DNA of 62,838 bases, filler included, from Craspedostauros australis (lineage: Eukaryota): assembly GCA_030167865.1 (NCBI GenBank). It is 3 parts of 3 records of this genome, joined end to end, with 100 filler letters (N's around TTAATTAATTAA, not from the genome) between each part and the next. Parts side by side here need not be neighbours in the genome. Positions count along the whole stretch, not along the records: positions 32,080 to 60,569 come from JALAGF010006457.1; 2 more parts are not named here. One strand, written 5' to 3'. The notes under the pieces were generated by a model. The model had not been told where the DNA came from. It saw nothing but the letters and a program-made list of their open reading frames with translations, and ran no database searches. Made by a program: the position numbers and the translations under genes. Shown one piece after another: positions 19,401 to 60,669 of this stretch (position 1 is its first letter; every line of letters starts with the position of its first letter).

Positions 19401-22400
19401 CATCAGCCCCGTCTTCGCAGCCAACTGTTTCGAGTGCAGTGCCCACAGGTAGCGAGTCACCGTCAGTATCACCTTCGTCACAGCCGAGTGCAGAGAGCGG
19501 CATACCCAAAGGTAGTGAATCACCGTCATCACTTTCATCTTCACAGCCAAGTGGTTCGAGTGCAGTGCCAACAGGCAGCGAGTCACCGTCAGCAGCCCCA
19601 TCTTCACAGCCGAGTGCAGAGAGCGGCATGCCGACAGGCAGTGAGTCACCGTCAGCAGCCCCATCTTCACAGCCAACTGTTTCGAGTGCAGTGCCCACAG
19701 GTAGTGAATCGCCGTCATCACTTCCATCTTCACAGCCAAGTGTCACAAGCGCGGTGCCAACAGGGAGTGAATCACCGTCATCAGCCCCATCTTCACAACC
19801 AACTGCTTCGAGTGCAGTGCCCACAGGTAGTGAATCGCCATCAGTATCACCTTCTTCACAGCCGAGTGCAGAGAGCGGCATGCCGACAGGCAGTGAATCG
19901 CCGTCATCAGCACCTTCGTCACAACCAACTGTTTCGAGTGCAGTGCCTACAGGCAGTGAGTCACCGTCATCACCTCCATCTTCACAACCAACCGCTTCGA
20001 GTGCAGTGCCCACAGGCAGTGAGTCACCGTCAGTATCACCTTCTTCACAACCAAGTGGTTCGAGTGCAGTTCCCACAGGTAGTGAATCACCTTCATCAGC
20101 CCCATCTTCACAACCAAGTGCTTCGAGTGCAGTGCCGACAGGCAGTGAGTCACCGTCAGCAGCCCCATCTTCACAGCCAACTGTTTCGAGTGCAGTGCCC
20201 ACAGGTAGTGAATCGCCGTCATCACTTCCATCTTCACAGCCAAGTGTCACAAGCGCGGTGCCCACAGGGAGTGAATCACCGTCATCAGCCCCATCTTCGC
20301 AGCCAACTGCTTCGAGTGCAGTGCCGACAGGGAGTGAATCGCCGTCAGCATCGCCTTCTTCACAGCCAACTGCTTCGAGTGCAGTGCCAACAGGGAGTGA
20401 ATCACCTTCATCAGCCCCATCTTCACAACCAACTGCTTCGAGTGCAGTGCCGACAGGCAGTGAATCACCGTCATCAGCCCCATCTTCGCAACCAACTGCT
20501 TCGAGTGCAGTGCCAACAGGGAGGGAATCACCTTCATCAGCCCCATCTTCACAGCCAAGTGGTTTGAGTGCAGTGCCGACAGGTAGTGAATCACCGTCAG
20601 TATCACCTTCTTCACAGCCGAGTGCAGAGAGCGGCATGCCCACAGGGAGTGAATCACCTTCATCAGCCCCATCTTCACAGCCAACTGCTTCGAGTGCAGT
20701 GCCCACAGGTAGCGAATCGCCGTCAGCAGCCCCATCTTCACAGCCAAGTGCCACAAGCGCGGTGCCCACAGGGAGTGAATCACCGTCCGTATCACCTTCT
20801 TCACAACCAACTGCTTCGAGTGCAGTGCCAACAGGGAGTGAATCACCGTCAGCAGCTCCATCTTCGCAACCAACTGCTTCGAGTGCAGTGCCGACAGGCA
20901 GTGAGTCACCGTCAGCAGCCCCATCTTCACAGCCGAGTGCAGAGAGCGGCATGCCCACAGGGAGTGAATCACCTTCATCAGCTCCATCTTCACAGCCAAG
21001 TGGTTCGAGTGCCGCGCCCACAGGTAGCGAATCACCTTCATCAGCCCCATCTTCACAGCCAAGTGCCACAAGCGCGGTGCCCACAGGGAGTGAATCACCG
21101 TCCGTATCACCTTCTTCACAACCAACTGCTTCGAGTGCAGTGCCAACAGGGAGTGAATCACCGTCAGCAGCTCCATCTTCGCAACCAACTGCTTCGAGTG
21201 CAGTGCCGACAGGCAGTGAGTCACCGTCAGCAGCCCCATCTTCACAGCCGAGTGCAGAGAGCGGCATGCCCACAGGGAGTGAATCACCTTCATCAGCCCC
21301 ATCTTCACAGCCAAGTGCCACAAGCGCGGTGCCCACAGGTAGCGAATCACCGTCAGCAGCACCTTCTTCACAACCAAGTGCTTCGAGTGCAGTGCCAACA
21401 GGCAGTGAGTCACCGTCATCAGCACCTTCGTCACAACCAAGTGCTTCGAGTGCAGTGCCGACAGGGAGTGAATCACCGTCCGTATCACCTTCTTCACAAC
21501 CAACTGCTTCGAGTGCAGTGCCGACAGGCAGTGAATCGCCGTCATCAGCTCCATCTTCACAGCCAACTGCTTCGAGTGCAGTGCCCACAGGCAGTGAATC
21601 ACCTTCATCAGTCCCATCTTCACAGCCAAGTGCCACAAGCACGGTGCCCACAGGGAGTGAATCACCGTCATCAGCACCTTCGTCACAACCAACTGCTTCG
21701 AGTGCAGTGCCCACAGGCAGTGAGTCACCGTCAGCAGCCCCATCTTCACAGCCGAGTGCAGAGAGCGGCATGCCAACAGGGAGTGAATCACCTTCATCAG
21801 CCCCATCTTCACAGCCAACTGCTTCGAGTGCAGTGCCCACAGGCAGTGAGTCACCTTCATCAGCCCCATCTTCACAGCCAAGTGCCACAAGCGCGGTGCC
21901 CACAGGGAGTGAATCACCTTCATCAGCACCTTCGTCACAACCAACTGCTTCGAGCGCAGTGCCAACAGGGAGGGAATCGCCTTCAGCAGCCCCATCTTCG
22001 CATCCAACTGTTTCGAGTGCAGTGCCAACAGGGAGTGAATCACCGTCAGTATCACCTTCTTCACAGCCGAGTGCAGAGAGCGGCATGCCAACAGGGAGTG
22101 AATCACCTTCATCAGCCCCATCTTCACAGCCAACTGCTTCGAGTGCAGTGCCAACAGGGAGTGAATCACCTTCATCAGCTCCATCTTCACAGCCAAGTGG
22201 TTCGAGTGCAGTGCCCACAGGTAGCGAATCGCCGTCAGCAGCCCCATCTTCACAGCCAAGTGCCACAAGCGCGGTGCCCACAGGGAGTGAATCACCGTCC
22301 GTATCACCTTCGTCACAACCAAGTGGTTCGAGTGCAGTGCCGACAGGGAGTGAATCACCGTCAGCAGCTCCATCTTCACAGCCAACTGCTTCGAGTGCAG

Positions 22401-25400
22401 TGCCCACAGGTCGCGAGTCACCGTCAGTATCACCTTCGTCACAGCCGAGTGCAGAGAGCGGCATGCCAACAGGCAGTGAGTCACCGTCATCAGCCCCATC
22501 TGCGCAGCCAAGTCGTTCGAGTGCAGTGCCGACAGGCAGTGAATCACCTTCATCAGCCCCATCTTCACAACCAAGTGTCACAAGCGCGGTGCCCACAGGC
22601 AGTGAGTCACCATCATCAGCTCCATCTTCACAACCAATTGGTTCGAGTGCAGTGCCGACAGGCAGTGAATCGCCGTCAGTCCCACCTTCTTCGCAGCCAA
22701 GTGGTTCGAGTGCGGTGCCCACAGGTAGTGAATCACCTTCATCAGCTCCATCTTCACAGCCAACTGGTTCGAGTGCGGCGCCCACAGGCAACGAATCGCC
22801 ATCAGTATCACCTTCATCACAACCAAGTGGTTCGAGTGCAGTGCGCACAGGCAGTGAATCACCTTCATCAGCACCTTCGTCACAACCAACTGCTTCGAGT
22901 GCAGTGCCGACAGGCAGTGAGTCACCGTCATCAGCTCCATCTTCACAACCAAGCGTTGCAAGCGCTGTACCTACTGGCAGTGAATCACCGTCATCAGCTC
23001 CATCTTCACAACCAACTACTTCGAGTGCAGTGCCCACAGGCAGCGAATCGCCATCAGTATCACCTTCATCACAACCAAGTGGTTCGAGTGCAGTGCCGAC
23101 AGGCAGTGAGTCACCATCACCAGCACCTTCGTCACAACCAAGCGTTGTAAGCGCTGTACCCACTGGCAGTGAATCACCGTCATCAGCACCATCTTCACAA
23201 CCAACTGCTTCGAGTGCAGTGCCCACAGGCAGTGAGTCACCGTCATCAGCACCTTCGTCACAACCAAATGTTTCGAGTGCAGTGCCCACAGGCAGTGAGT
23301 CACCGTCATCACCTCCATCTTCGCAACCAACTGCTTCGAGTGCAGTGCCCACAGGGAGTGAATCACCGTCAGTATCACCTTCTTCACACCCAACTGCTTC
23401 GAGTGCAGTGCCAACAGGTAGTGAATCACCTTCATCAGCCCCATCTTCACAACCAAGTGCTTCGAGTGCAGTGCCCACAGGAATTGAGTCACCGTCAGCA
23501 GCCCCATCTTCACAGCCAACTGGTTCGAGTGCAGTGCCCACAGGCAGTGAATCACCGTCAGTATCACCTTCTTCACAACCAACTGCTTCGAGTGCGGTGC
23601 CGACAGGCAGTGAGTCACCGTCAGCAGCACCTTCATCACAACCAAGTGTCACGAGCGCGGTGCCCACAGGGAGTGAATCACCGTCATCAGCACCATCTTC
23701 ACAACCAACTGCTTCAAGTGCGGTGCCGACAGGCAGTGAGTCACCGTCATCAGCACCTTCATCACAACCAAGTGTCACAAGCGCGGCGCCCACAGGCAGT
23801 GAATCGCCGTCATCGGCCCCATCTTCGCAGCCAAGTGGTTCGAGTGCAGTGCCGACAGGTAGTGAATCACCGTCAGTATCACCTTCTTCACAACCAACTG
23901 CTTCGAGTGGAGTGCCCACAGGCAGTGAATCACCGTCAGCAGCCCCATCTTCACAACCAAGTGTCACAAGCGCGGTGCCCACAGGTAGCGAATCACCGCC
24001 ATCAGCTCCATCTGCGCAGCCAAGTGTCACAAGCGCGGTGCCGACAGGCAGTGAGTCACCGTCATCAGCCTCATCTTCACAACCAAGTGCAGAGAGTGCA
24101 GCGCCGACAGGTAGCGAGTCACCGTCGGTGGCTCCATCATCACAGCCAAGTCTCTCGAGTGCTGTCCCAACAGGCAGTGAATCGCCATCAGCAGCATTTA
24201 CATCACAACCAAGTGCTGAGAGCGCGGTGCCGACAGGCAGTGAATCGCCATCAGTATCACCTTCATCCCAGCCAACTGCTTCGAGTGCGGTGCCGACAGG
24301 CAGTGAGTCACCGTCAGTATCACCTTCCTCGCAACCAACTGCTTCGAGTGCAGTGCCCACAGGCAGTGAATCACCGTCATCAGCTCCATCTTCACAACCA
24401 ACTGCTTCGAGTGCAATGCCCACAGGCAGTGAATCATCGTCATCAGCACCTTCATCACAGCCAACTGCTTCGAGTGCGGTGCCGACAGGCAGTGAGTCAC
24501 CGTCATCAGCACCTTCTTCACAGCCGAGTGCAGGCAGCGGTTTGCCGACAGGCAGTGAGTCACCATCATCAGCCCCATCTTCACAACCAACTGCTTCGAG
24601 TGCAATGCCCACAGGCAGTGAATCACCGTCAGTATCACCTTCATCCCAGCCAACTGCTTCGAGTGCGGTGCCGACAGGCAGTGAGTCACCGTCATCAGCA
24701 CCTTCATCACAGCCAAGTCTCCCGAGTGCTGTCCCAACAGGCAGTGAATCGCCATCACTATCACCTTCTTCACAGCCAAGTGCTGAGAGCGCGGTTCCAA
24801 GCGGAAGCGAATCACCGTCAGCAGCACCTTCCGCAAAGCCAAGTGCAGAGAGCGGCATGCCGACAGGTAGTGAGTCACCGTCAGCAGCACCTTCCTCACA
24901 GCCAAGTGTCGCAAGCGCGGTACCCACAGGTAGTGAATCGCCATCAGCATCACCTTCGTCACAACCAAGTGTTTCGAGTGCAATGCCGACAGGTAGTGAA
25001 TCGCCATCCTTCCCACCGAGCGCATTGTCATCGGGCCCTTCCATCTTTCCATCATCCTTCCCATCGCGCTTACCAACAGAGAATCCAACGTCAGCGCCGA
25101 CTCTGAAGGAGAGCGAATTGCCGTCATTCTCTCCATCCTCTACTCCAAGCGAGGTAACGGAATCTCCGACATCACATCCAACCGATGCACCAACAGTGAA
25201 GCGCAGCGAGTCACCATCTATCGCTTCATCTTCGACTCCCAGTGCATCAACAGAATCACCAACATCAAACCCAACGTCGGCACCGACGGTCAAAATTAGC
25301 AGAGCACCATCCATCGCTCCATCTTCTACTCCAAGCGAGGCAACGGAATTACCAACATCAAACCCAACATCAGCACCCACAGTCAAGCACAGCGAGACAC

Positions 25401-26881
25401 CATCTATCGCTCCATCTTCTACTCCAAGCGAAGCAACAGAATCTCCGACATCAAATCCAACATCAGCGCCCACAATCAAGCACAGCGAGACACCATCTAT
25501 CTCTCCATCTTCTACTCCAAGCGCGGCAACAGAGTCGCCGACATCAAACCCAACATCAGCGCCCACAATCAAGCACAGCGAGACACCATCTATCTCTCCA
25601 TCTTCTACTCCAAGCGCGGCAACAGAGTCGCCGACATCAAACCCAACATCAGCGCCCACAATCAAGCACAGCGAGACACCATCTATCGCTCCATCTTCTG
25701 CTCCAAGTGAAGCAACGGAATCACCAACATCAAACCCAACATCAGCGCCCACAATCAAGCACAGCGAGACACCATCTATCTCTCCATCTTCTGCTCCAAG
25801 TGAAGCAACAGAGTCGCCGACATCACATCCAACAGACGCACCTACCGTCAAGCACAGCGAGACACCATCTATCGCTCCATCTTCTACTCCTAGTGAGGCA
25901 ACGGAATCCCCGACATCAAATCCAACAGACGCACCAACAGTCAAGCACAGCGAGACACCATCTATCGTTCCATCTTCTGCACCAAGTGAAGCAACAGAAT
26001 CGCCAACATCAAACCCAACATCAGCGCCCACAGTCAAGCACAGCGATTCGCCATCCACCGCTCCATCTTCTCCTCCAAGCGAATCAACAGAACCGCCGAC
26101 ATCAAATCCAACATACGCACCAACGCGAAAGGATAGCGAATCGCCATCCACCAGTCCTTCGTCGGCTCCTAGTGAAGAAACAGAGTCGCCGACAATCAAG
26201 CCAACGTCAGCGCCCACGCTGAAGGAGAGCGAGTCGCCGTCGTTCTCTCCGTCCTTCACTCCAAGCGAGGCAACAGAATCGCCAACAAGCAATCCAACAT
26301 CGTCACCGACCGTCAAAACCAGTGAATCACCATCGTTCTCTCCGAGCGAAGAAACAACATCGCCAACACGTAGCCCGACATCGATCCCGACCGAAATCGA
26401 TTCGGCAGTGCCTACAGACATGCCTCGCATCACAACAAGCGCTCCAACTGTCGCTCCAACCCAAGGCCCAACTGCAGCTCCAGTTGCGACTCTGATTTCA
26501 GTATCCAGCACCGAAAGGACCATCGTTGAAGGGGCACCAAATTCTATCACTTTCAGTGGTCTGTCTCAAGCGCAGGCAGGCTCTTCAGTCAGCATCACCC
26601 TGATTCTGTTCGGGGATTTTGGCAATGATTCGGAGCACTCAACAATCTCCTTCGAAGGGACCGAGACCGACATTGCAACTTTCGTTCCTAACAGTGGTTC
26701 CACAAACCACCAAGGCGACTGCAACACTGTGCCACACGAACTCACCATTCCTGTCCCCGCATCCCAGTTCAATCAAAACTTTGTTTCGAGTTCCATTACT
26801 TTCATCGTGGAGCACTCAGTTGAAGTGAATACATTTTGCAGCAGAAACGGCGTCCGAATCAGTTTGGAGTACTTTGCTTGA
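13424..26881 (+). CDS. Giant membrane-anchored mucin-like PTS-repeat protein (~4,130 aa); model join(13424..13860,14137..14211,14566..14637,15082..26881)
   Basis: The 3922-aa ORF at 15113-26881 extends upstream through three GT-AG introns (donors AG|GTATGT, AG|GTATGT, AG|GTGAGT; CAG acceptors), all phase 2 and stop-free in frame. It contains an IQ-like motif, two hydrophobic segments, a Cys-containing domain, RRL sites, 22-aa and 31-aa repeats and a C-terminal beta-rich domain. One N gap at ~18070-18105 makes the length uncertain. Confidence 0.8.
17165..25010 (+). repeat. Coding tandem repeat, 66-bp unit (22 aa, SSAVPTGSESPSSAPSSQPTAS), about 120 copies
   Basis: Directly visible periodic sequence and translation. 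Copy number estimated as span/66; assembly collapse or expansion is possible. Confidence 0.95.
25060..26350 (+). repeat. Coding tandem repeat, 93-bp unit (31 aa, SEATESPTSNPTSAPTIKHSETPSISPSSTP), about 14 copies
   Basis: Period of 93 nt seen, for example between 25520 and 25613. Confidence 0.9.
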
Positions 26882-46131: not shown

Positions 46132-47959
46132 TTAGAAATCACCCATCATCGCCGCCTGCTTCTCAGCCTCATCGCGCTGCGACCGGCGCAAGTCGTTGAG
46201 CATGGGATTCAGGAATTTCTTCTGGAATGACTGGAACGGCCCCTTCAGACTCGTCTTCTCCCACTCATGCTTGGTATTCTGCCCATCCCCGAACGCGTCC
46301 AACTCGCGCATCAATTGCGGCAAGGTCGGCACTGTGAAGGGATCGAACGTCGCGGCGTCGTCGATGGGCACGCAGACGCGTCCCGTCTTGGGATGGATGC
46401 AGAAGGGGCTCTTGAGCAAGTGATTCTGCATCTTCGACACGTTGATATCCAACCGCGGGTACGTGCACCGGAACACCGTCTGGATGGGCCACAGCTCCAT
46501 CTGGATGCGCTCCGCGGCGCTGTAGTGCTTGGCCAGCTTCTTGTTGGAATGCGTCTTGTGGGCGCCGCAGAAAATGGACAATTCGTGGCGCAGCATTCCC
46601 CATTTCTCGGCCGGCGTGGAAATATCCGAAAGATCGTTCCAGGATTTGAGCATGCGGTCGCACACCATGGATGCAGCGGTAGGGAGGGTGTCGAGGAGTT
46701 CCTCCCATCGGTCCTGCGATGCCAACAGTCCGTGGCCTTCCTCCGTGATGTAGGTATCGATGAACATGGGTTCCAAAATCTCAAAAGCCCGTGTCATCAT
46801 GGGGTGCAACGGATACTGCATCTTGTCACCCTTCTTGGACTTGCCGTCGCCGATGCTGACCTGCGCAAATGGGAAGGAGAGCAGGATGGAGCAGAGGGTG
46901 TTGAGTCAACGATGGGTGGTCGAATGCAGCAGCAGAAACGCATTGAGGATGTAAGTACTGGCATGAGAAGCTTGTTGGATTGGTGATCGCAATTGCACTG
47001 TACGATTCACAATACCCCATTCCGATCACACGCACGCATACACAGCACAACCCAGCTCAATGCAGTACAGCATACATGCATGCACGACCACAATCCCCAC
47101 GCACCTCAAAGTACTGCGCGATCGCGCTGCGTGCCATATCGGGCAGCTCGCGCGCTGCCTCATCGCACACCCACGCGTGCACGCCACGACGTCCCGAATA
47201 GATCCAGGCGATCTGCTCGAACCCGAAATCCTGCCGCAAGCCCTGATCCATGACGTCGATCGCCATCGTCATGAAGGACCAGCACTTGGGACAGATCTTG
47301 GCACCCGTGCAGCCGCAGAAGCGGATGGGATCGTAATCCGTGAGATCGATGTCGAAGACGAGCTCGCGCTGCTGCGTGCATTTGGAGAAGTTGGGGACGG
47401 TCTGGTGATCCTTGGGTGGGATCTGGAAGACGGCGCCGATATCGATCTTGTGCGGGCGCTTCTTTTGGATGGCCTCGCGCAGTTGGGCGGCGTTGTTGTA
47501 GCTCTGGTAACGGATGTAAATCTCGTTGCCGGGGACGGGCTCGATGGTGAAACTGAATTCGCGGTGACGGAAGAGCTGGCTGTTTTTGTTGCTGGCAGCC
47601 GAAGCAGAGGCAGATGGCGTCGCTTTGCTGTTGTTCGCGGCACCGTACGACAACCAGGCATGCAGCAGTTCGAAGGGAAACAGCCGCGAGTAGTACATTT
47701 GCAGCAGCTCTGGCGTGAACAGCTGCTCGTTGGATAGATCCTGACTGGATGCTGGCACAGCTGGTTCCTCCTTCTCTTCTTCCTTGCTTTCGCCATCTTC
47801 CATCGGCGATGTCATCGTCATGACGGCATCAGCATGGACATCATCTTGAGCCTCATTCATCGGCTCATTCTTGGCTTCATTCTCTGCTTCGTCATCAGTG
47901 TCTTGCAGATCATCCATCTTGTGCTCTTCCGCCATTTTGGTTGCTTCCATCGTTGTCAT
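46132..47959 (-). CDS. PRI1: DNA primase small (catalytic) subunit; join(complement 47105..47959, 46132..46860)
   Basis: Motifs YYSRLFPF, REFSF, KIDIGAV, RELVFDIDLTDY, YSGRRGVH, YPRLDINVS and HLLKSPFCIHPKTG. One GT-AG phase-0 intron. Confidence 0.96.
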
Positions 47960-48381
47960 GGTGGTATTGTTCGTGTGCTTGATTCAACGACCAAGGAGGT
48001 AGACTGTGTGTGTGTTGGGGTTGGTGCGCCAACTGCGAAGTGTTGCGCAAGTTTCGTTTTTGTGGTCGTTTGTGCGCGCAGCGATTCCGCATGTTGAACA
48101 GAAATGAAACAAACGACCAACAAGCACGCGAGATCGTTATCGCCAAAAAATGGCGCGAACACCTGTTGTGGTCACACGAATCAAATGTGTTGGTTTGGTC
48201 CGTTTAGTCGTTGTAGTAGATTTAGACTGATTTCTTCTTTTTTGCTGTCCTTTGCTCCGTTCCGTTCGAACTGTAGTAATATCTGTCTGCTCTTGATGTG
48301 CCACACAACGCGATCCGTCAGGCCTTCAGATCACATTCCTTGGTCTCATCTGTACGTGCGTGCGTGCTCTCTCTCTCCTTC

Positions 48382-49627: not shown

Positions 49628-50147
49628 GATAATAGCGGGTGGCTTTGAATTGCGTGGGTGCGTTCTTTCTTTGTCGCTCTGTTTGTGTTGTTATGAATCA
49701 TGAGGTCGGAGGCAGTGTTGCGCTGCCCCTCTCTGTTTGTATCGCGATGTGTCGCCATGTGCGCGAAGCAGGTGCGACGCGCATTCCGCCCATGACATTG
49801 CGTTCCTTCTTCGCTTCGCGTCCGCGATGACGGCGATCTGCGGATGAGAACCCAGACGTCAGGTTTATTTATTTGCATTAGGTGATTGCGCTTCTTTCAA
49901 ATTCAAATCTGGATGTCAAGAATTTGCATCCAACACCAACCAAAACCGTCAAGAGAAAGAACACACCAATGCTCGTGGGCGACACAACGCCACACAGAAC
50001 ACCACCGGTCGCTGACTGGCGCTGTCTCAGAGCAACCAACTTCTCATTCATAACACAAGTTGAGACCAAGGCAGACAACAACCAATTCACATCAACAGCA
50101 GTATCAGCAGTATCAGCAGTCTCACCAGCATCAGCAGCACCAGCACA

Positions 50148-52429
50148 ATGGCAACCTTTTCCGTCGAGGTGCGTTGCTTTACACGGTGTTGAGATATGCA
50201 GTAATACGACGTGATGAAATGGAAGGCTCCGAGAAGGAAGTCGAGTTCTTGCAAAGGCATCACTTCTCGTGGAGGAGGAATGGCGCGTTGCGGCGTCCTA
50301 CAGCCTGAGGTGTCATTGACTTTCGTTCTCACCGCTCGTCTCTCCTCTCTCTCTCGCTTCTGTCACCCATCGACACCAATGTTGCTGCCCCAACATTCCC
50401 CACGCCGCAAATGCAATACTCCTTGATACTGTTACATCGCACTACATTACTTGATATTATGTAATATAATGCCATAGATCGCCAAATCCGGTCGCTCTAA
50501 ATGCAAGAAATGCAAGGAACCCATCCCCAAGGGCACGATGCGCATGTGCACCAGCGTCGAACGTGACGGTGCCGACTTCACCATGTCGTCCTACACGCAT
50601 GTGGCGTGCTTTCGCATTCCGCGCAAGTACGTCAAGGATTTCACAGCGCTGGAATTCGTGCAAGAACATGTCGAGGATGGATCGGACGATGCCAGCTTGC
50701 TGTCACGGCAGGATCAGGTCGAGACCATAGCTGCGCAAATCGAGAGCGCGGCGGCGGCGACGACTGGAAAGAAACGTTCGGCTGCCGCCGATGACGATGC
50801 GTCGTTGATGGAGAAGCTCAAAGCCGATTTCAAGGCGCAAGCTGCGAAGAGCAAAAAGAAGGTTGCCGTGGTGGTCATAGATGACGACGACGATGACGAA
50901 ATGGACCAGCCCAAAAAGAAGATCAAGAAGAACAACAGCAAAAGCGGGTCCACATCCAAACCAGAGCCAACGTACAAGGACATGCAAAGGGTGTATGCGG
51001 AACATTGCAAGAAGACGACGGATGAAATCAAGGATTATTTGCGGTACGTTTCCTCCGTTGCCGCGGTAATTACATGGGTGGTAACAAATGTCACAATTGT
51101 GGCGGGTGGCGGGTGCGATGTGATTGAGAAATGACGAAGCAATGGGGATCAAGGGAATCCAACATGCGCTGTTTTAGAACGCGGAAGCGAATGCTTCATC
51201 CCATCGTTTGCGCGGATTGTGTACTCGCAACATTGGCTCACATGATACCGTGCTTCTTGCGAATCACATTCTCACGACTACCAACCAACAAAACTTCGCT
51301 CGCAACACGTGCTGCAGATGGAATCGACAAACCATGACGGGCACAAAGAATATCGTTCTGTACAAGGTGCTTGATGGTCAATTGCGAGGACGATTGCCGC
51401 GTTGCGGAATGTGCGGTGGCAAATTGAAGGTCGCGGAACAAGATGACAACGATGCCAAGAATGGTCGTTCGTACAAGGATGGATTCAAGGTGATCTGCGG
51501 CGGCGCCTTCGATGAAGAAACCCGGATGAGGATCGATTGCGCATTTGTCTGTGCTGTCAATGATTCCAACCTCAAGCGACTGGTGTGGCTGACGGAAGAA
51601 CCGACGGAGGAAGAGAAGGAGGGGCTGGACAAGGAGGAAGAGGCCGCCAAGAGCGGTGCTGCAGATGGCAGCGGTGAAGATGGAGGCGGCGGCAAGCAGG
51701 AGGTGCTGGACAAGGCGAAGGGATTGAATTGGAAGACGGGCAACCCCAAGGAGCTGAAGGCAACTGCAGCTGCCTTGATTGAATTCTGCAAGGAGCACAA
51801 CTTGGACATTCCGGACGATGCCAAGCAGGCACGCATGAACGTTGGCAGGCTGGTGCTGAGCATGAAGGGATCCTCTGCGTTGGAGATCGTGGAAGAAGCA
51901 ATCAAGAAGTATGGCATCGTCGCCGCCAAAGCCGCCAAGGCAGAACAACGCGAAGCAGCGGCGGAGGCCATGTGCGGGCATCCAGGCAATGCTCAACTCC
52001 TGCTGGCCTTTCAGGAATTGGCTCAGCTGTATTTCAAAGGTACGGCATGCATGGTGCGAATAGTGGGTTGCATTCTCTACTATTGTTGCCTTGTTTGTTT
52101 TTGCTTGCTTTGGGTGGAATGAAGTGTCCATGAACCAGTCATCGCCATCTCACATCTAGCGCAATCATTCACAACTTCAATCGTTTCCTTGTCTTCTGCA
52201 CCGAATCCACACCACAGAGGGAAACCGCAATGCCGGCTCCAGTTACACCAAAGCAGCTAACGCCATTCGCGATTTGGATTTCGAGGTTACCGCCGACAAC
52301 GCAATGAGCCTGACCAAGGGCAAGACGAAGGTCCAAAACATTGGCAAATCCTCCGGTGAAAAGATGAAGGAGTTCTGCAACACGGGAACGATGCAGAAGC
52401 TGGAAGAGAAGCGCGCCAACGCAGCGTGA
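50148..52429 (+). CDS. zf-PARP + PADR1 + Pol-X/Pol-beta 8-kDa HhH domain protein (506 aa), no PARP catalytic domain; join(50148..50168,50478..51043,51318..52039,52218..52429)
   Basis: PARP zinc finger FSVEIAKSGRSKCKKC...THVACF. PADR1/Zn3 LRWNRQ..TGTK..LDGQLRGRLPRCGMCGG...C...C. HhH_8-like N..L..AFQELA..YFKEG...YTKAANAI...NIGKSSGEKMKEFCNTGTMQKLEE. Three GT-AG introns keep the frame. Confidence 0.85.
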
Positions 52430-52480
52430 CGGAGAGAACGATCCATACTCGTAATCCACGTGCTCTTAAACCATGCAGTG

Positions 52481-53094
52481 TTACTTGTGGCACCTCGGGT
52501 CCTTGCTCTTCCTCCACCTCTCATCTAATGTCCTCATGTCACACCGGAATGCCGGTTTGCCCAATTTCTCATTGACCAGATTGTGTTGCTCGCACATCCA
52601 CTGGCAGAGTTCTTTTCGTGATTCGACTCTGAGAGAATCATGTGACGAATGAGTATGTGTGAGAGGATGGGTGAGTGAGTGAGGTCTTTGTATTGTGGCT
52701 TTGCCGGTATTGTACGCATTCACAGGCACACGCACACTCATCAATTGAACAGGCGAATGGAGTACGCAACCAGGCCAATTCACATGTCCACTTACTTTGG
52801 TGGATGCTCCTCGATGTTCTTCTGAAAATCAGCAGCACACCACGTGCAAGGATAGAACTCCGCCAATCCCACCAGGAACTGTTTCATCTTCGTTTGTTGG
52901 GTGCTTGACGGTGCGTCCGGATACCACGCCGTCATGGTATGGAGCAGGTTCCACGATGAGTGTCCCAATTCTGACGACCGCACAGGACACTGCGCTTTGG
53001 CCTTCGCTGCTGGCTTCATCTTCGGCATCGCCTTGCTCAGCAAGTCCTTGACATCGTCGCAGGCAGGTCGCTCGCAGTCAGGAGGATCTATCAT
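52481..53094 (-). CDS. ERV1: Erv1/ALR FAD-linked sulfhydryl oxidase; join(complement 52796..53094, 52481..52628)
   Basis: Motifs ELGHSSWNLLHT, YPCTWCA (CxxC), WMCEQHNLVNEKLGKP.F.C and ERW. One GT-AG intron. Confidence 0.93.
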
Positions 53095-53474
53095 GTTGAT
53101 TGTTTTTGTGTGATGGACTTGTGCTGTTCCCCACCAAAAAAGAGAAGTCTGCTCTCGCGAACATCACCCCGGTCGCCGACGTGCGCAGACGCATGTTTCG
53201 GTTCATTTCCATTTCGTTCCATTCGACTCTCGGTTGCAACAACGGCGACAAAAGTGGTGATGTGGACAAACGTAGACTCCGAAGACTCACAATTCGTTTC
53301 CTTCGACAACGATACAGTGTCAGATAAATCGTCTGTATTTCAACCGGTATGCCGCGTCCGACGTTTTGGTGGACGCGAACGGTTGAGAAAACTATCTAAC
53401 GGCTAATGAGGAATATAGGATCGAGTTGCTTTCGGGCTCTAAAAGATGAAGATGCGTAAGCAGATACTTCACCA

Positions 53475-55010
53475 TCACCCAGAGTTGCGAGTCGAACCTC
53501 CTGAGGCTCTCTTTCGATTGAAAGCTTGTCGCAAGCGTTGCGTGTCGATCCACGGTTCCATCCTCTTAGAGATTGGATTCAACTGGTCCATCTCATGTCG
53601 CTGCATGTCGCTGACCCATTGGGAGCACGCTGATGCCATATCTCGGGACGATCCGGTTGTTCCCGCGTTCAACAGATCGTATGTTGTTAGTCGAGACGTG
53701 ATGTCATCATGCCAAAACAACGTGATGAGGAATGAGACGATCTCCGTCCTACTGAGTGACCGCCGGCCGATGAGATCAAACACTTTGCGGGAACGTCCCA
53801 TTTCTCGATACCGATGCAACGGCAGTGCATAGTTTATCCACGCATTGTGGCGAAACACCTTGCGCGCCTCTGATACCCAATCATGCATCACAAGCACCCG
53901 GCCGTCTGAGTTCTCGGCCAGGCTTGCACAAAATTCAGCAACGTCAGGATCACGCGAGCAAAGGCGAATGAGGACTCGCACGGGCAATTCCAGGAGATCA
54001 TTCAACGCGAGAACAAAGTCGGTTCGCACGGTGGGTGATGTCTCTCCCTTTGCCTCAGACGGAAACCCGCCCATCAGAAGCATCGCGGAGGACATTGTTG
54101 CGTCCTCAATTTGATATGAGGAACGCTGCGCTGCGATGGCCTTGGCGAGATCTCTCATAAGGTTTGACAGTGGCGCGCGGCCACCCGATCGTGAACGCTC
54201 CATCGTCCGATTCGAAGAGCGCAGGGCGCAGTTGTGGAACCTTTCAACTACGGCAGCGCCCACCTGAGAATCATTTCGTCCAGCCTGTGGCGGAGGCGAC
54301 TGGCTACTCTGTTCATCGAGAAAGAGAAAGGTGGTTGGTATCTTCAGGACGTTGGAGAGCCTGTTGTGATACAACGCCGTCTCTTGCAATTCTTCCCATC
54401 TTGTGCACGAGGTTGCGAGCGGAAAGCTCAATCGATTGCTTCCATCCAACTGCATCCCGGAAAGACTCGTCTCAAGTGTCCTGAGACATATGCCATCTTT
54501 CGCCGCCATGCTGGCCGAGTCATCGAGGATGCAGAAGTTGAGGGGAAGACGATCGCGATGGCGTTCGATTTCGCGGACTAAACCGCTGGGGAAGCCCCTG
54601 TGCTTCAATTCTTCCATTTCTGTTTTTTGGACGTTGAGCAATGATGTTGGTGCATTTCGGCTCAGCTCTTGCATTGTTCCCGTCGGTTTTCTCCAAGGCG
54701 TGTTACGCCGTGATGAATATGCATGCAGGACTTCAGGATCTTGGTAATGTCCACGCACATCACCTTGCGATGCCCACAGCGAAGAATGGGAAATCGGCAC
54801 CCCTTGATATGCCGGCTTCGAGCCATTCTGCAAGGTGCCAAGGTCCGCTCGGATCGCCGCGGCTGCTGAGACGGTAGACGGTACTGAAGCGATCGAGACT
54901 CCGTCATCGTCAATGTCGATGCCGGACACAACCACTTCTTCCATTCCGGCAACTGTGGCGTTGCTGTCCAGCTTATCACAGTGTCGAAAGTCATCACCTC
55001 GAAACTCCAT
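53475..55010 (-). CDS. vWA-like domain protein (511 aa)
   Basis: Motifs ILDDSASM..DG (MIDAS-like DxSxS), TRWEEL, LPVRVLIRLC, DWVSEA..V..HNAWINYALPLHR.RE.G. This pattern resembles a vWA-like family I recall from diatoms. Confidence 0.7.
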   Translation of the reverse strand: MEFRGDDFRHCDKLDSNATVAGMEEVVVSGIDIDDDGVSIASVPSTVSAAAAIRADLGTLQNGSKPAYQGVPISHSSLWASQGDVRGHYQDPEVLHAYSSRRNTPWRKPTGTMQELSRNAPTSLLNVQKTEMEELKHRGFPSGLVREIERHRDRLPLNFCILDDSASMAAKDGICLRTLETSLSGMQLDGSNRLSFPLATSCTRWEELQETALYHNRLSNVLKIPTTFLFLDEQSSQSPPPQAGRNDSQVGAAVVERFHNCALRSSNRTMERSRSGGRAPLSNLMRDLAKAIAAQRSSYQIEDATMSSAMLLMGGFPSEAKGETSPTVRTDFVLALNDLLELPVRVLIRLCSRDPDVAEFCASLAENSDGRVLVMHDWVSEARKVFRHNAWINYALPLHRYREMGRSRKVFDLIGRRSLSRTEIVSFLITLFWHDDITSRLTTYDLLNAGTTGSSRDMASACSQWVSDMQRHEMDQLNPISKRMEPWIDTQRLRQAFNRKRASGGSTRNSG

Positions 55011-56361
55011 CTTGGTTGCGGCCGTCTCGTACTTCTTCTCAGCGTCACTCGCATGAACGAGTATGTCGGCTCAGTTATCTGGTTTATGCCCGTTGTGTTG
55101 TGTGGACATATGATGGCATTGACCTCGAATGCGCACAGATTGGAGTTGGGCGTGAAACGACGGCGAAGCCAGCACTGAGATACTCTTGTGTTCCCAGATC
55201 TTGGTGTGGCCGACTTCCCAAGGACCGGTGTGGACCTAACCGGATCAGAGCTGATCAGAGTGCGGTGCAGCGCGCCATTGTGCAACTCACACAAGGACCC
55301 AAAAGCGTGTTGTGTCTGACGAGCCGACCTCACCAAAACGGTGACGTCTGAGAACGATTGAGCGTTCGGGACGCAGCATGTCACACAAAAAAGTGAGTTG
55401 GTTGGACGAAGGCATTCTTGTATCTGTCATGACAAATTTGCGAGTACGAATGATGTTACCTTTATCGCGTTGGGTGGGCTCAGATTGTTATGTACTATTC
55501 ATGAGCTGTGTGACCTTGATACAAGAGTACAATAAACGTAATCCGGGCATTGGAGAAGTTGCATTTGGTGGCGCGTATGTGAGACGCGACCGGTTCTGAA
55601 CATCGGTGGTTGTTTGCTGTGGTGACAACTTTGGACGAAGACCCAAGCCACGCCCAGTGATGGTGTTGAATGTACAACGCGGAACACAGCTCTCACACAT
55701 CCTTGAAAATGGGAACAACCTCGAAGACTTCGGAAGCGAAAGTGTACAACGCAATAGTTATGATTCTGTCTTTTGTTTCTGTGACTGGTGACCCACAGAT
55801 GAGGGATAACCAACACACCGATCGATCCATCGGTTGGTGAATTCATTCCGCTTTCTGCGTTCTTGTCTATCCATCTCGACCAGCGTGCGTATGACGATCC
55901 ACGGCGACCGTCTCCCATGCACGCGTGTATCCAAGCTACGCAGTCTTCTATTCCGATGGGAAGAACTCTTGAATGCGACGCGATGCATGCTTTTGCCGTC
56001 TCGCATTGCAGCGTCTTGGATGTGAAGCGAATGTTCATTGGACAGGCAGGTCGGTGTGGATTGCCGCGTCGCCGTACGGCGAAGCCAAAAGGATGCGTCG
56101 TCATTGCCGCTGTCGCGCAGCTGGCTGGGACTTTCGCTGTTCTCTCGAATGACGTTGTATTAGATTGTCCTCCAATCCTCGATTGTGCGCGAGTCAATGT
56201 AAAGCATTCGGATTGCTTGTCTTTCGTTGCTGTCGCGAGCCTAATATTGACGTCGCCCCACCAACACGTACGTCGATGCAGTTGCCGGTGCCATGTTCCA
56301 CATCGGTTCGCCCACAACACATCTGCGCCCTCCCACACGAGCCAGAGTTGCATCAGGGCCA

Positions 56362-57158: not shown

Positions 57159-59525
57159 TGTGAATCGAGCGGGTAGTACGAACAGAGCAGAGTTAAAAAG
57201 TATGGACAATGGTTGCGCCGATCGTCGTATTTGCTCTGTGTGTTTGTGTGATCGTGTGCTCGTGATCCGTTTTGCGCTTCTCGTGTGCTTGCGTGATGTC
57301 TGGGTACTTGACTCGTTCGACTGAAAGTGCGATTTTGGCGCCCAAAACGATCGTCAAAGAAATGTGAGGAGCTTCGCTGCAATCCTCGCAATGGTCTGCC
57401 ACACCATCCCCGTGACCAAGACGGCGTGTGCTCCCACCAGCGATCGTGCTCTTCGTGCATGTAGCTGTGCGCCGGAGGGTGATCTCCGAGTGAACAGAGG
57501 GTCCTTGCAGTATCAGCAGTTGTGCTGAAAGCCATCTCGAGCTCATCTCACCGCATCGAAGTTTAATGCGCATCCTTGGAAGATGGAACATGAACAGAAA
57601 TAGAATGGGCGAGAGTTCGAAGGGGAGATCTTTGCGACCATGGTTCTCGAAGACTTGTGTTGGTATCCGTGCACTCCATGGAAGAATGTACTTTCGTGCA
57701 GTAGGTCGTACAATAATACTCTGGAGGGTGGCAGTGCATGAGTACCGACTCTGCGGTTGCTTTGGGAGAGGGTGATGGGATGCTTTGGACATAAAGTACG
57801 TGACTGTCTGTTGTGTGTCTGTCTGTTTGTACCTTTGTGCATGCTGTTGTTCGGATGTTTGTATCTGTCTGCCTATCAATCAATGATGCCTTGGGGATGT
57901 GGTGTCCAAACAGGGCAACTGCGGCCCAAAACAGACAAGAGTCGTCGCAGAGTACTTCAGTTCACCAAGAGTATCATGCGCTGCGGGTAGTCTACTCCAG
58001 TCGACCACCTCTCTCAAGAGAGCGAAAGCAGGTTGATCGTCGATTCAGTCTATGTGCTTTGGTCATCGAGCGGCCCAACTTTCAGGGAAATGAAATGAAG
58101 TAGAGGACTCTCCTCTCTTCTCCTCTTCCCTACTCTCTTCCAGAGCACTCTCTTCGAGTAAAGGGTTTGCTTCTCCATCTGCATTTCTCATGCAACCTGT
58201 CGAATCTATTATATCACACTATATTACATTCCCTGCCCTCCGCTGCCTGCCAACCAAGATACGTCTTTTCGGGCGATAATGTGAAGAGTCATGTGCCTAC
58301 CATATGTACCACACATACTCGCACTGGTAGACCTCGGCCTACTTCATTTGTTGCATTCTCCTCGTGTTGCGAGTAGCTTTGAATGATGTAGTACGTGGAA
58401 CTCGTAAGTTTCAGCGTGTACTAGCTATGCTCACACTCCTGCTGTCGCCGATTGCCGCCAACGGCGGATGACTGAAAAGCTGATGGAGAGTATCTCTCTA
58501 GTCTTGAATGCAAGTCTGTCCATATTCGAGTCCTGAGTGCTCAGCAGGGTTGAGTCGTTCCAAGATGTCATTCTGACGAAATTCTGCGAACAAACGCAAA
58601 ACCAAAAGTGTCAACCTTCCACGATGGGAAACGTGTGAGAAACATGTGGGTGTGTTGATGAAACACGACCCCTCCACGAAATGCACACGCCGTCGTTGCG
58701 TTACGCTACAAGTGTAATATATTATTCTATAATATGATCGTGCGAGTTGCTCCACAACATGGCAGTCCGACCGGAAGTACTCCGCAAGTGCACACTCCAT
58801 GTGCTTCGAGCAACGATGGATGGAGTATCGTCATCGCCAGTGTCATCACCAGCAATGCTATCGACATCATCGTTCTCCTCGTCAATGAATGATCGTGGAC
58901 GACACGATGTTGGTGTCACGAGCTCAACAGCCAGTACGTGGAGACTCACCTTGAGAACCATCGATCGTGAAAAGGCCAGTCGGCACCTTTCGTGTGATGT
59001 ACGAGCATCGTGGACATCGAAAACAACCCGCACTGCGCCACACTACCGATGCTGCCACTACCAAACCAAGGCCAACAAGCTGCAAAACGAAACAGCGCAA
59101 AGCATCATATCACAACTCCGCTCATCTTCGTTGCAAGGCGAGGCAAGATGTGACGAGACGAAACACGGCAGAACACGACGAAAACGAAACGAAACGAAAC
59201 AGGTGTGACAACACAACACGATGCACGATGAGACGGAACATGAGATCATGAGGGAAGGTGTATTCTGGCAGCTCCATCCAACAAGCTTCGAAGCTGTTTT
59301 CATAAAATGAATGAATCCTCTGTGCGACTTGGACTTCTATCGCATGCATACTCCATTCCTCTCATATCACATCAGCGACAACTCACATCATCTCGTCACG
59401 TCCACGCGATGTGCTTCTATTCTTCATGCATCCGCAATGTACTGTCGCGGATTGCTTCAGCTTTCGGACATCACTCACACAATACCAACACATCACACGT
59501 CGCAGCCAACAATCATGACGCCGAC

Positions 59526-60569
59526 ATGTCCAACATCACGCAAGACAAACTCCTTCGCGCTGCCACGAACGGTAATCTGACAATGTTGAAGGAGTGGAAG
59601 AACAACAACCCAAGAGACGATCACGGTAGCATCAAGGATGACAATGGCAAGACTCTCCTGCATCGATCATGCAGCAAAGGCCACTTGGCTTGTGTGAAGT
59701 ATCTGTTGAAATCAAGCTCGACCTACATCAACATCCAATCCAACTATGGGAGCACCCCGCTTGTGTCAGCATGCTGGAATGGTCACCTGGATTGCGTGAA
59801 GTACCTGGTGGAAGCATGCAACGCTGACATATCCATCCCAGGTCGCCGTGGTGCAACTGCATTCCAGTGCACTTTCCATCACGGTCATTTGGATTGTGCG
59901 AAGTACCTCGTGGACTCATGTGATGCAGACATTGATGTTCGAGACACTCGCGGCCTTACTCCACTTCAATGGGCGTGCTCGCGAGGTCATCTGGACTGCA
60001 TGAAGTATCTGGTGCAATCGCTCAACGTCGATGTGACTATCGTGGATAGCGCTGGCTGCACGCTGCTGCATTATGCATGCCGACGTGGTGCTTCGGATAC
60101 AATGAAGCGCCTGGTCGAGTTATGTCCCACTGTCAATCTTCAGAAGTGGGATCAATATGCTTCATTGAATGTTGAGTGCTCTGGAGGTGACCCTTTGGAG
60201 GTTGTGAAGTACTTGGTGGACTCATGCAATGCTGATGTCAACGTCCAAGACTCTCGCGGTGCCACTCCACTTCATCTTGCCTGCACATTCGGCCATTCGA
60301 ACGTTGTCAAATATTTGTTGGAATCTTCCAACGCTGATGCCAATACACAAATCCACCAAGGCCTCACTCCATTACATGGGGCATGCTTGTGCGGCCATTT
60401 GGAAGTTGTGAAATGCTTGGTGGAATTGGGCAATATTGAGGTCAACATCCAAGCCAGTAACGGCTTCACCCCACTTCATTTTGCATGTGCCAGCGGTCAA
60501 TTGAATGTTGTGAAGTATCTTCTGGAATCTTCCAACGCTGATGTCAACGCACAAGACAATGAAGGTGTC
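59526..60569 (+). CDS. Ankyrin-repeat protein, 3'-truncated by the assembly gap
   Basis: About nine ~34-aa repeats of G.TPLH.AC..GHL.(C/V)VKYL(V/L)....D.N. The reading frame runs into Ns. Confidence 0.92.
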
Positions 60570-60669
60570 NNNNNNNNNNNNNNNNNNNNNNNNNNNNNNN
60601 NNNNNNNNNNNNNTTAATTAATTAANNNNNNNNNNNNNNNNNNNNNNNNNNNNNNNNNNNNNNNNNNNN
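60570..60669. other. Artificial scaffold spacer (N44-TTAATTAATTAA-N44)
   Basis: Same 100-nt spacer as at 31980-32079. Confidence 0.95.

Follow-up and report, generated by a model that had tools for sequence, protein, structure and literature searches.

PARP-type zinc fingers occur fused to enzymes that process DNA ends, such as DNA ligase III-alpha and the plant 3'-phosphatase ZDP. In PARP1, an N-terminal module made of the fingers Zn1 and Zn2 and of the Zn3/PADR1 domain goes together with BRCT, WGR, helical and ADP-ribosyl-transferase domains. The 8-kDa domain of Pol X polymerases is another reader of DNA ends, which holds the 5'-phosphate or the 5'-deoxyribose phosphate (5'-dRP) end of a gap. 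In Pol beta and Pol lambda this domain is N-terminal to the polymerase core, and Pol lambda differs from Pol beta at some residues of the lyase pocket. In Pol mu and TdT it only binds the 5'-phosphate side. To our knowledge, none of Pol mu, TdT and the N-terminal HhH domain of Mus81 is a dRP lyase; these domains bind DNA ends or flaps.

Base-excision repair and single-strand-break repair are almost unstudied in diatoms, major primary producers of the ocean that have to cope with oxidative stress and strong light. A large absence of PARP is reported for diatoms and other stramenopiles (PMC4245714). Here we describe a gene of Craspedostauros australis (assembly GCA_030167865.1) which was found in a window of 62,838 nucleotides, the whole stretch of DNA that was analysed, and whose predicted product combines a PARP1-type N-terminal module with a Pol X-type 8-kDa domain.

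Gene model and convergent neighbour

The gene occupies positions 50148–52429 of the plus strand. Its four exons, separated by introns that are all of the GT..AG type, form a single open frame of 506 codons followed by TGA. Exon 1 (50148–50168) begins at the first in-frame ATG and ends before a GT donor at 50169; it contains the start codon and the first seven codons, the beginning of the zf-PARP finger, and the short starting motif that it encodes is common to the homologues, where it runs uninterrupted into the finger. Exon 2 (50478–51043) encodes the finger (about 50478–50640), then a linker that is acidic and basic and contains an NLS-like run of lysines (50880–50930), and, from about 50967, PADR1's N-terminal helices. 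The zinc ribbon of Zn3/PADR1 (51403–51546), an acidic linker, a conserved helical middle domain (about 51727–51921) and, from about 51979, the 8-kDa domain's first helix are encoded in exon 3 (51318–52039). The remainder of the Pol X-type 8-kDa domain (HHH_8) and the TGA stop (52427–52429) are in exon 4 (52218–52429).

The manual splicing of the earlier, sequence-only reading is borne out. The homologues P0001 and P0002 are intronless across the residues encoded at the junctions between exons 1 and 2 and between exons 2 and 3, which confirms both. Intron 3 (52040–52217, 178 nt, phase 1) interrupts the 8-kDa domain past the first helix. It is spliced out in one contig of X1, a run that is presumed to be RNA and whose contigs cover neither 50148–50823 nor 51008–51624. 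This contig joins 52037 to 52216, skipping 178 nt with GT..AG ends, and the cut, moved by two nucleotides, is 52039|52218. In 20 genomic ORF calls of homologues, the frame breaks at the same spot or at most two codons from it.

A second contig of run X1, of high depth and unspliced, covers 52055–52245, including intron 3. It more likely belongs to the convergent Erv1 gene, because its depth is 8–14 times that of the exons of the gene described here and because it is contiguous with the Erv1 transcript. This neighbour (52481–53163, minus strand) codes for an Erv1/Alr sulfhydryl oxidase (Pfam Evr1_Alr, 60.9 bits). Its last exon is 52481–52628, then comes an intron, and the next exon starts at 52797; a contig of run X1 spans 52216–52628 and continues with sequence located at 52797. 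As had been noticed from the sequence, the end of Erv1 lies 51 bp downstream, on the opposite strand (stop codon at 52481–52483), and nothing follows downstream: with the Erv1 gene in this place, there is no space for any more exons of the zf-PARP/8-kDa gene.

The gene is conserved and, judging from the contig that skips intron 3, expressed. We read it as a probable DNA-repair gene of a diatom-like stramenopile; the NLS-like run suggests a nuclear location of the protein.

Domains of the predicted protein

The order proposed from the sequence, which was a zf-PARP finger, a PADR1/Zn3 domain, and a terminal HhH domain followed by a stop, is recovered by Pfam for the finger and for HHH_8, and by profile comparison for Zn3. 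The zf-PARP finger (PF00645) scores 49.4 bits in exon 2 vs a Pfam gathering cut-off of 39.3, and the ligands of its CX2C...HX2C motif are present in the spliced protein: C16 and C19 (50502–50513), H48 and C51 (50598–50609). The finger is detected at E ≤ 0.001 in 21 of the 74 aligned homologues, many of the others being N-terminally truncated fragments. All the structure work was carried out on homologues that are 36–48% identical, rather than on the spliced protein of the window itself. In the AF2 model of one full-length homologue, P0044 (pLDDT 90.8, pTM 0.70), the finger resembles Zn1 of PARP1 (3od8; TM-target 0.62–0.67, rmsd about 4 Å), and Foldseek also matches it to Zn2 of PARP1 (3odc) and to the zinc finger of Lig3 (1uw0).

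The four cysteine ligands of PADR1/Zn3 are C225, C228, C256 and C270. The corresponding columns are at least 90% conserved in the family alignment A1, and the second cysteine is absent from at least one homologue (P0005). Pfam returns no PADR1 match on exon 3 alone, the domain being divided by intron 2, and none in P0001 or P0002; in the intron-free homologues PADR1 is seen below threshold only, as Zn_ribbon_PADR1 (PF08063; 22.9 bits vs a cut-off of 25.1) in 2/74 and as PADR1_N (PF21728) in 1/74. The family profile A2, on the other hand, matches the crystal structure of PARP1 Zn3 (2riq) with E 3.5e-11 over chain residues 4–121, and 2jvn with E 3.4e-9; for the Zn1-Zn3 structure of PARP1 (4opx), the family profile gives E 3.2e-11. 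Weak matches to the SAP domain in the PADR1_N helices of five of the 74 homologues, all below the cut-off, were taken as a resemblance between helix motifs and not as a domain.

The window protein and the N-terminal module of PARP1 agree in their two domain types, in how these are ordered and in the zinc ligands, and Foldseek retrieves the Zn1-Zn3 chains of PARP1 with the P0044 model (E 1.5e-6). Unlike PARP1, the window protein has one zf-PARP finger only and lacks the BRCT, WGR, helical and ADP-ribosyl-transferase domains; moreover, Zn1 and Zn3 of the P0044 model, as they are placed relative to each other, do not superpose on DNA-bound PARP1 (rmsd about 18 Å over 281 columns). The absence of any PARP or polymerase catalytic domain, which had been claimed from the sequence, agrees with Pfam: neither in the window exons nor in the homologues scanned is there a match to the PARP catalytic, WGR and regulatory domains, or to the nucleotidyl-transferase core of polymerases (fingers, palm, thumb). 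Judging from its domains, the protein is no polymerase and no poly(ADP-ribose) polymerase; since it is devoid of the catalytic domains of PARP1, it is incapable of poly(ADP-ribose) signalling.

The C-terminal exon, which the run X1 contig joins to exon 3, is HhH-like: HHH_8 (PF14716) scores 31.0 bits on exon 4 alone, without the first helix of the domain, vs a gathering cut-off of 30. The score is 47.9 bits in P0044, and the domain is found in 59/74 aligned homologues. The family profile matches Pol beta 12–97 with E 1.2e-11, and the lyase domain of Pol lambda (1nzp) with E 3.7e-7. When exon 4 alone is compared with the PDB by phmmer, the Pol beta match is non-significant (E 0.37–0.5) and served for the residue register only, exon-4 residues 36–66 being aligned with Pol beta 60–90, in agreement with the family profile. 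A phmmer match of exon 4 to a designed repeat protein is spurious.

The six best matches of an all-against-all structural search with the model of a 184-aa homologue (P0102, pLDDT 93.8) are Pol X 8-kDa domains (Z 13.6–12.3, rmsd 1.3–1.8 Å), the next unrelated fold being at Z 5.5. The superposition on Pol beta that the earlier reading had suggested succeeds with the models of homologues, over Pol beta residues about 10–90 (Z 13.4–14.1, rmsd 1.3–1.6 Å, 80–83 residues); over all Pol X 8-kDa domains Z is 12.3–14.1, with 12.7 for Pol lambda, and identity to Pol beta and Pol lambda is about 30%. With Foldseek, the P0044 model superposes on Pol beta with an rmsd of 1.8 Å over 85 columns, at 32% identity. 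It is important to note that this fold alone says nothing on catalysis, because it is shared by Pol mu, TdT and Mus81 (N-terminal HhH domain), which are not known to be dRP lyases, at Z 13.1, 12.8 and 8.4, respectively. In sequence, however close the folds, the domain is nearer to Pol beta, Pol lambda and bacterial PolX (28–30% identity) than to Pol mu, TdT and Mus81 (23%, 14% and 9%).

The domain differs from that of Pol beta by six extra residues, which form a Lys/Gly-rich loop (52313–52333) before the HhH hairpin (52334–52351), whose glycine (G479) is invariant (77/77). It also differs from those of Pol beta and Pol lambda in being C-terminal and free-standing: the window protein stops 6–9 residues beyond it, and in 71 of 77 sequences (a set which includes the window and some near-duplicates) the C-terminal domain ends at most four residues from the domain end.

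The account of the protein in three domains was right about these domains and missed a fourth, a conserved helical bundle in the homologue models, which lies between Zn3 and the 8-kDa domain. The structural search with this middle domain gave no significant match, only helical lids of clamp loaders at Z 4.2–5.5, below a meaningful level. The idea that it is a degenerate second 8-kDa domain, resulting from an internal duplication, was rejected (hhalign probability 0.3%).

The family is large, with 246 representatives at 50% identity (E ≤ 1e-3) found with exon 3. Its members come from diatoms, a chrysophyte and a labyrinthulomycete; the architecture is common to them all, and conservation is strong across every domain in alignment A1. 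PF00645 and PF14716 are the only Pfam families carried by the 102 matches of 101–921 aa, and no longer fused form appears among proteins of 922–2630 aa, which is weak evidence. Databases give the homologues automatic names, "PARP-type domain-containing protein" or "poly ADP-ribose polymerase"; the latter rests on the zinc finger only and is wrong. A search of the open-access literature returned no description of a protein with zf-PARP/PADR1 and an 8-kDa domain, and nothing on the Pol X complement of diatoms. The architecture, which had been presented as not recognisably characterised, has indeed no functional description in that search; it is uncharacterised rather than unseen, because the family is already in databases under its automatic names.

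Residues of the putative lyase pocket

The alignment to Pol beta that had been made by eye is reproduced by phmmer and by the family profile: Y446 (52244–52246) is the equivalent of Tyr39, and K485 (52361–52363) is that of the nucleophile, Lys72. The equivalents of Pol beta Lys41 and Lys84 (K497, also in exon 4) are kept too. The stretch A-E-K-I-x-E-F around Lys72 aligns without a gap, and the residue before the nucleophile position is E or D in 68/77; the lysine at the Lys72 position and its surrounding motif distinguish the window protein from Pol mu, TdT and Mus81. The Tyr446 position is Tyr in 61/77. The best-conserved lysines are K474 (76/77), K497 (73/77), K470, K472 and K448.

Seven residues of the lyase pocket of Pol beta are named in PMC2241857: Glu26, Ser30, His34, Lys35, Tyr39, Lys68 and Lys72. 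The window protein keeps only Tyr39 and Lys72 of these seven, the others being replaced: Glu26 by Tyr434, Ser30 by Gly438, His34 by Asn441, Lys35 by Ala442 (Ala in 61/77) and Lys68 by Ser481. Lys60 of the 5'-phosphate site is replaced by Thr473, which is flanked by lysines.

The nucleophile position is itself variable in the family. It is Lys in 49 of 64 non-redundant members, so that the conservation of this lysine in orthologs, on which the sequence-only reading had staked its lyase proposal, is incomplete; this is softened by the fact that 8 of the 15 members that lack Lys485 have a lysine at the Lys68-equivalent position (481), one helix turn earlier, vs 2 of the 49 that have Lys485. A natural member of the Lys481 type is P0012 of Seminavis robusta, in which residue 485 is Leu. 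Seven of the 64 have neither lysine, and two of these seven have Arg. The exchange between Lys485 and Lys481 gives a Fisher p of 5e-9, on 77 partly redundant rows and uncorrected for ancestry; on the tree, well-supported branches force only two origins, and a test of independent pairs, of which there are only three, has no power (p about 0.5). This covariation is a lead only.

The proposal of a dRP lyase is plausible, the equivalents of Tyr39 and Lys72 being kept, and it is weaker than presented in that five of the seven pocket residues are replaced and the nucleophile position varies. Some of these pocket positions depart from Pol beta in Pol lambda as well, so that the missing residues count more against a "Pol beta-like pocket" than against a "lyase". 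We rate dRP-lyase activity of the window protein as slightly less probable than its absence.

Possible functions of the family

We take the protein to be an uncharacterised repair factor that is predicted to bind breaks, and binding of DNA breaks by this protein is likely. Our best explanation, which has about an even chance of being right, is that it brings together two borrowed readers of DNA ends, a break sensor and a 5'-end domain with a lyase step. The former would be the PARP1-type sensor, with one zf-PARP finger and Zn3/PADR1, the latter would be the 8-kDa domain, with the small family-specific helical bundle connecting both. At a nick or gap, the zinc fingers may detect the discontinuity together with the 3' side or the exposed base, and the C-terminal domain would grip the 5' side with its HhH hairpin and its lysine-rich loop. 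Lys485, aided by Tyr446, would then act by Schiff-base beta-elimination to remove a 5'-deoxyribose phosphate, so that a 5'-phosphate fit for ligation remains. That a lyase domain acts separately from a polymerase is feasible. DNA ligase III-alpha and ZDP similarly join a PARP-type nick sensor to a DNA-end module, and the finger of Lig3 is one of the Foldseek matches; the difference is that their partner is a ligase or a 3'-phosphatase, whereas that of the window protein is a reader of 5'-ends, possibly a lyase, with Zn3/PADR1 in addition.

It may also be that the protein is a non-catalytic break sensor or scaffold, a possibility that is tenable, and less probable than the preferred explanation. 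The 8-kDa domain would do no more than bind a nick or gap on its 5'-phosphate side, and the protein would cap, mark or bridge single-strand breaks. Equally tentatively, it would recruit repair factors through its middle helical domain and signal in a PARP1-like manner, by protein contacts instead of ADP-ribose. The replacement of most of the Pol beta pocket, the 15/64 members without Lys at the nucleophile position and the equal Z of non-lyase relatives speak for this; the conserved K474, K497, K470, K472 and K448 look like a surface that binds the DNA backbone, and an extra conserved domain of no known fold suits docking. Against it, the Lys72 motif, with the acidic residue before the lysine, is kept nearly unchanged, and a lost Lys485 usually goes with a lysine at 481, which selection for plain binding of the backbone would not obviously demand. 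That the protein is instead a detached lyase or 5'-end-binding subunit, serving in trans a ligase or a gap-filling polymerase encoded elsewhere, so that the activities of Pol beta are split between genes, is improbable, and just as improbable is the accompanying idea of an organism without any 8-kDa-bearing Pol X, or without Pol X altogether. The protein does end at the very point from which Pol X enzymes go on into the polymerase core, and no member is fused to a polymerase among the 102 matches (nor, as weak evidence, among the longer proteins), but the literature search yielded nothing on diatom Pol X that would bear this out. Last, a truncated remnant of PARP1 or Pol X, a pseudogene or an artefact of manual splicing is extremely unlikely: the name "poly ADP-ribose polymerase" in some databases and the high-depth contig over unspliced intron 3 could be read in this way, but the frame is intact with canonical splice sites and a spliced contig, the ends and the position of the intron are shared by hundreds of homologues found in genomes and transcriptomes, every domain is strongly conserved, and the unspliced contig is more likely that of Erv1.

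To return to the explanation that combines a break sensor with a lyase, an extended form of it, which we consider rather unlikely, is that in the largely PARP-less stramenopiles the family is both the primary sensor of single-strand breaks and the Pol X-type dRP lyase of the cell. It would be a "sense-and-clean" enzyme, whose lyase is uncoupled from any polymerase, in which direct processing of the ends replaces ADP-ribose signalling, and whose catalytic lysine has moved repeatedly between the Lys72 and Lys68 positions. If true, this shift would be a natural case of migration of an active-site residue.

The family suggests that the pathway is wired differently in these organisms, with a PARP1-style detector coupled directly to a module for 5'-end processing, separately from the gap-filling polymerase and with no poly(ADP-ribose) signalling. 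Should the lyase be active, the family would supply the first Pol X lyase domain that is naturally free-standing and targeted by zinc fingers, and a clean system for studying how the removal of dRP is coordinated with break sensing; if it is inactive, the protein would be a new kind of non-enzymatic nick reader. Either way, the label "poly ADP-ribose polymerase" is no basis for inferring PARP signalling in these organisms, whose widespread and unstudied family probably marks or cleans single-strand breaks.

Gene structure and neighbourhood

The gene (50148–52429, plus strand) comprises four exons, 50148–50168, 50478–51043, 51318–52039 and 52218–52429. All three introns have GT..AG ends, and the spliced frame contains 506 open codons followed by TGA. 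Junctions 1/2 and 2/3 are supported by two homologues from contigs of other organisms, P0001 and P0002: both were called where the contig has no intron, and both read without interruption across the residues that these junctions join. A contig of the public sequencing run X1, whose RNA nature is a guess from the run listing, covers 51625–52037 and resumes at 52216; the 178 nt left out have GT..AG ends (equivalent to the cut 52039|52218). A second X1 contig jumps from 52628 to 52797 across an intron-like stretch of Erv1, the gene next door, which is consistent with X1 being a transcriptome. If so, the C-terminal exon is transcribed and joined to exon 3, which answers a worry of the sequence-only reading. 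Twenty genomic ORF calls of homologues stop at the position of intron 3 or two codons after, which makes this intron an old one. CAG/CAGTAT-like triplet repeats (50096–50147) form a microsatellite in the 5'UTR, directly upstream of the start codon.

The minus-strand Erv1/Alr neighbour (Pfam 60.9 bits) has its stop codon at 52481–52483, 51 bp past that of the gene, as had been read from the sequence; a further exon is impossible, so that no catalytic exon follows. X1 contigs also cover exon 4, the unspliced intron 3 and the last exon of Erv1 in one piece (52055–52628), at 8–14 times the depth of the gene's own exons. Since only 51 bp separate the two stop codons, this is probably the 3'UTR of the Erv1 transcript, which would extend in antisense across exon 4 and intron 3; an intron-retaining isoform is the alternative source.

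A DNA primase small subunit domain (Pfam 90.6 bits) is encoded by an ORF some 2 kb upstream (47057–47983, minus strand); this second DNA-metabolism gene is probably nearby by coincidence. The window also contains a 1504-aa ORF with an AAA_16 ATPase domain (6494–11011, minus strand, 74.5 bits), a 531-aa ORF beyond Erv1 without Pfam match (53475–55070, minus strand) and a 457-aa ankyrin-repeat ORF (59244–60617, plus strand). A single open frame of 3979 codons (14942–26881, plus strand), with no Pfam match, encloses a 7.9-kb tandem array (17152–25002), for which TRF gives the periods 126, 189 and 315 nt, each a multiple of 63, with about 81–83% matches, and a second array of a 93-nt unit (25131–26316). 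It looks like the gene of a Ser/Pro/Thr-rich, mucin-like surface protein; the long ORFs in its other frames and on the opposite strand are by-products of the repeat.

Domains, predicted structures and family

The proposed succession of zf-PARP, PADR1/Zn3 and a terminal HhH domain is borne out. Pfam detects zf-PARP (PF00645) in exon 2 (49.4 bits, cut-off 39.3) and HHH_8 (PF14716) in exon 4 alone (31.0 bits, cut-off 30), the first helix of the latter being encoded by exon 3. PADR1 gives no Pfam match in exon 3, and only matches below threshold in homologues; it is recovered by a profile of 74 family members which, searched against all PDB sequences, matches PARP1 Zn3 (2riq, E 3.5e-11), PARP1 Zn1–Zn3 constructs (E 3.2e-11), Pol beta residues 12–97 (E 1.2e-11) and the Pol lambda lyase domain (1nzp, E 3.7e-7). 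The zinc ligands of the finger (C16, C19, H48, C51) and of Zn3 (C225, C228, C256, C270; at least 90% conserved in the family) are present. The linker after the finger contains an acidic stretch and a run of lysines that resembles a nuclear localisation signal. Zn3 and the C-terminal domain are separated by some 90 conserved residues in a helical bundle, which is absent from the sequence-only reading. The bundle does not duplicate the C-terminal domain (hhalign probability 0.3%), and a search of 48,161 chains returned no convincing structural relative (best Z 5.5, clamp-loader lid regions).

Two homologues, standing in for the spliced window protein, were folded with family alignments. The full-length model of P0044 (484 aa; 40% identical in its match to exon 3) has a mean pLDDT of 90.8 and a pTM of 0.70; Foldseek against the PDB matches it to DNA-bound PARP1 Zn1–Zn3 chains (E 1.5e-6), to isolated Zn1, Zn2 and Lig3 fingers, and to Pol beta (rmsd 1.8 Å over 85 columns, 32% identity). 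The P0102 fragment model (184 aa, middle and C-terminal domains; pLDDT 93.8) was compared with the 48,161 chains independently of Foldseek. The best match is Thermus PolX (Z 13.6), followed by Pol beta (13.4), Pol mu (13.1), TdT (12.8), Pol lambda (12.7) and Deinococcus PolX (12.3); all six superpose through their 8-kDa domains (rmsd 1.3–1.8 Å), and unrelated folds come next at Z 5.5. The full P0044 model against Pol beta gives Z 14.1 (rmsd 1.3–1.4 Å over 82–83 residues).

In a library clustered at 50% identity, exon 3 as a query retrieves 246 representatives at E ≤ 1e-3, 25 of them at E ≤ 1e-30. Since even the closest is only 48% identical, the library lacks the species from which the window comes. 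Named members are the diatoms Seminavis robusta, Odontella aurita, Pseudo-nitzschia delicatissima, Attheya, Skeletonema menzelii and Mayamaea pseudoterrestris, the chrysophyte Paraphysomonas and the labyrinthulomycete Aplanochytrium; the ESM Atlas adds, as a lead only, a possible red-algal cluster (score 0.83) in which both Pfam families occur. In a weakly resolved tree, the window protein clusters with pennate-diatom sequences.

The architecture is constant across the family. HHH_8 is found in 59 of the 74 aligned members and zf-PARP in 21, many rows being N-terminally truncated ORF calls; of 77 C-terminal domains, 71 stop at most four residues from the domain boundary. No family besides PF00645 and PF14716 is detected by Pfam in any of 102 matches of 101–921 aa, and no relatives of 922–2630 aa were found, which is weak evidence. 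The only departures seen are a lost Zn3 ligand in some members (in the homologue P0005, Asp replaces the second CxxC cysteine) and a Ser-rich tail of 29–33 residues past the 8-kDa domain in the cluster of P0143, another homologue.

The putative lyase site

Profile alignment, in agreement with the phmmer register, pairs Pol beta Asn12, Glu21, Glu26, Ser30, His34, Lys35, Tyr39, Lys41, Lys60, Lys61, Gly66, Lys68, Glu71, Lys72 and Lys84 with N420, E429, Y434, G438, N441, A442, Y446, K448, T473, K474, G479, S481, E484, K485 and K497, respectively, of the spliced window protein. Tyr39 and Lys72 thus have the equivalents first aligned by eye, and the local A/G-E-K-hydrophobic-x-E-F motif is kept; unlike Pol beta, the window protein has a six-residue Lys/Gly-rich insertion before the hairpin. 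Excerpts of PMC2241857 give Lys72 as the Schiff-base nucleophile, Glu26, Ser30, His34, Lys35, Tyr39, Lys68 and Lys72 as the lyase pocket, and Lys35 among the critical residues. Only two of these seven pocket residues are kept in the window protein, the nucleophile included.

In 77 C-terminal domains (the window and 76 database rows, near-duplicates among them), N420 and G479 never vary; Lys stands at the K474 position in 76, at K497 in 73 and at K485 in only 55; Y446 is Tyr in 61, and the Lys35 equivalent is Ala in 61. The conservation of the nucleophile in orthologues therefore holds in part: 49 of 64 non-redundant rows have Lys485 (two of them also Lys481), and it is absent from the remainder, where eight rows have Lys481 instead (the Lys68 equivalent, one helix turn earlier) and seven have neither, with Arg485 in two and Lys484 in two. 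The either-or pattern is striking in a plain 2×2 table of the 77 rows, near-duplicates included (p 5e-9). In the best tree, the eight Lys481-only rows are spread over five or more places, although well-supported branches force only two origins, and an independent-pairs test is powerless. A lysine may be under selection at this spot, which is a lead, not a proof.

Proposed function and significance

We propose that the protein would read single-strand interruptions from two sides. On one, the Zn1-like finger and Zn3, both of PARP1 type, would bind the break together with the adjoining duplex; on the other, the HhH hairpin and conserved lysines of the C-terminal Pol X domain would hold the 5' end, be it 5'-phosphate or 5'-dRP. 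In DNA-bound structures, the WGR domain of PARP1 contacts the 5' end, and the 8-kDa domain may play an analogous role.

Binding to DNA breaks is probable. Lys485-dependent dRP (or AP) lyase action has somewhat less than an even chance: K485 is kept, but Pol mu, TdT and Mus81, which the structural search also matches to the C-terminal domain, use this 8-kDa/HhH-type fold and are not known for lyase chemistry, and the Lys35 equivalent is mostly Ala. A purely non-catalytic sensor or scaffold is a serious contender, if a somewhat less probable one. A detached subunit acting alongside a separate polymerase is unlikely, and an artefact or a pseudogene is very improbable: the product is a real, conserved, uncharacterised repair factor.

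Its building blocks are textbook domains, and their combination is already visible in automatic annotations. As the sequence-only reading had supposed, the architecture has no existing characterisation: full-text searches of openly accessible articles found no description, and database names are all automatic ('PARP-type domain-containing protein', 'hypothetical protein', 'poly ADP-ribose polymerase'), the last being wrong. Earlier work cited in an excerpt of PMC2241857 showed that, on its own, the 8-kDa domain complements the MMS sensitivity of pol-beta-null cells. The zf-PARP/PADR1/8-kDa protein is worth a bench test. According to an excerpt of Perina et al. (PMC4245714), Thalassiosira pseudonana seemingly has no PARP and T. 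oceanica at least two. In such a lineage, a PARP1-derived sensor that lacks the PARP domain is therefore of interest.
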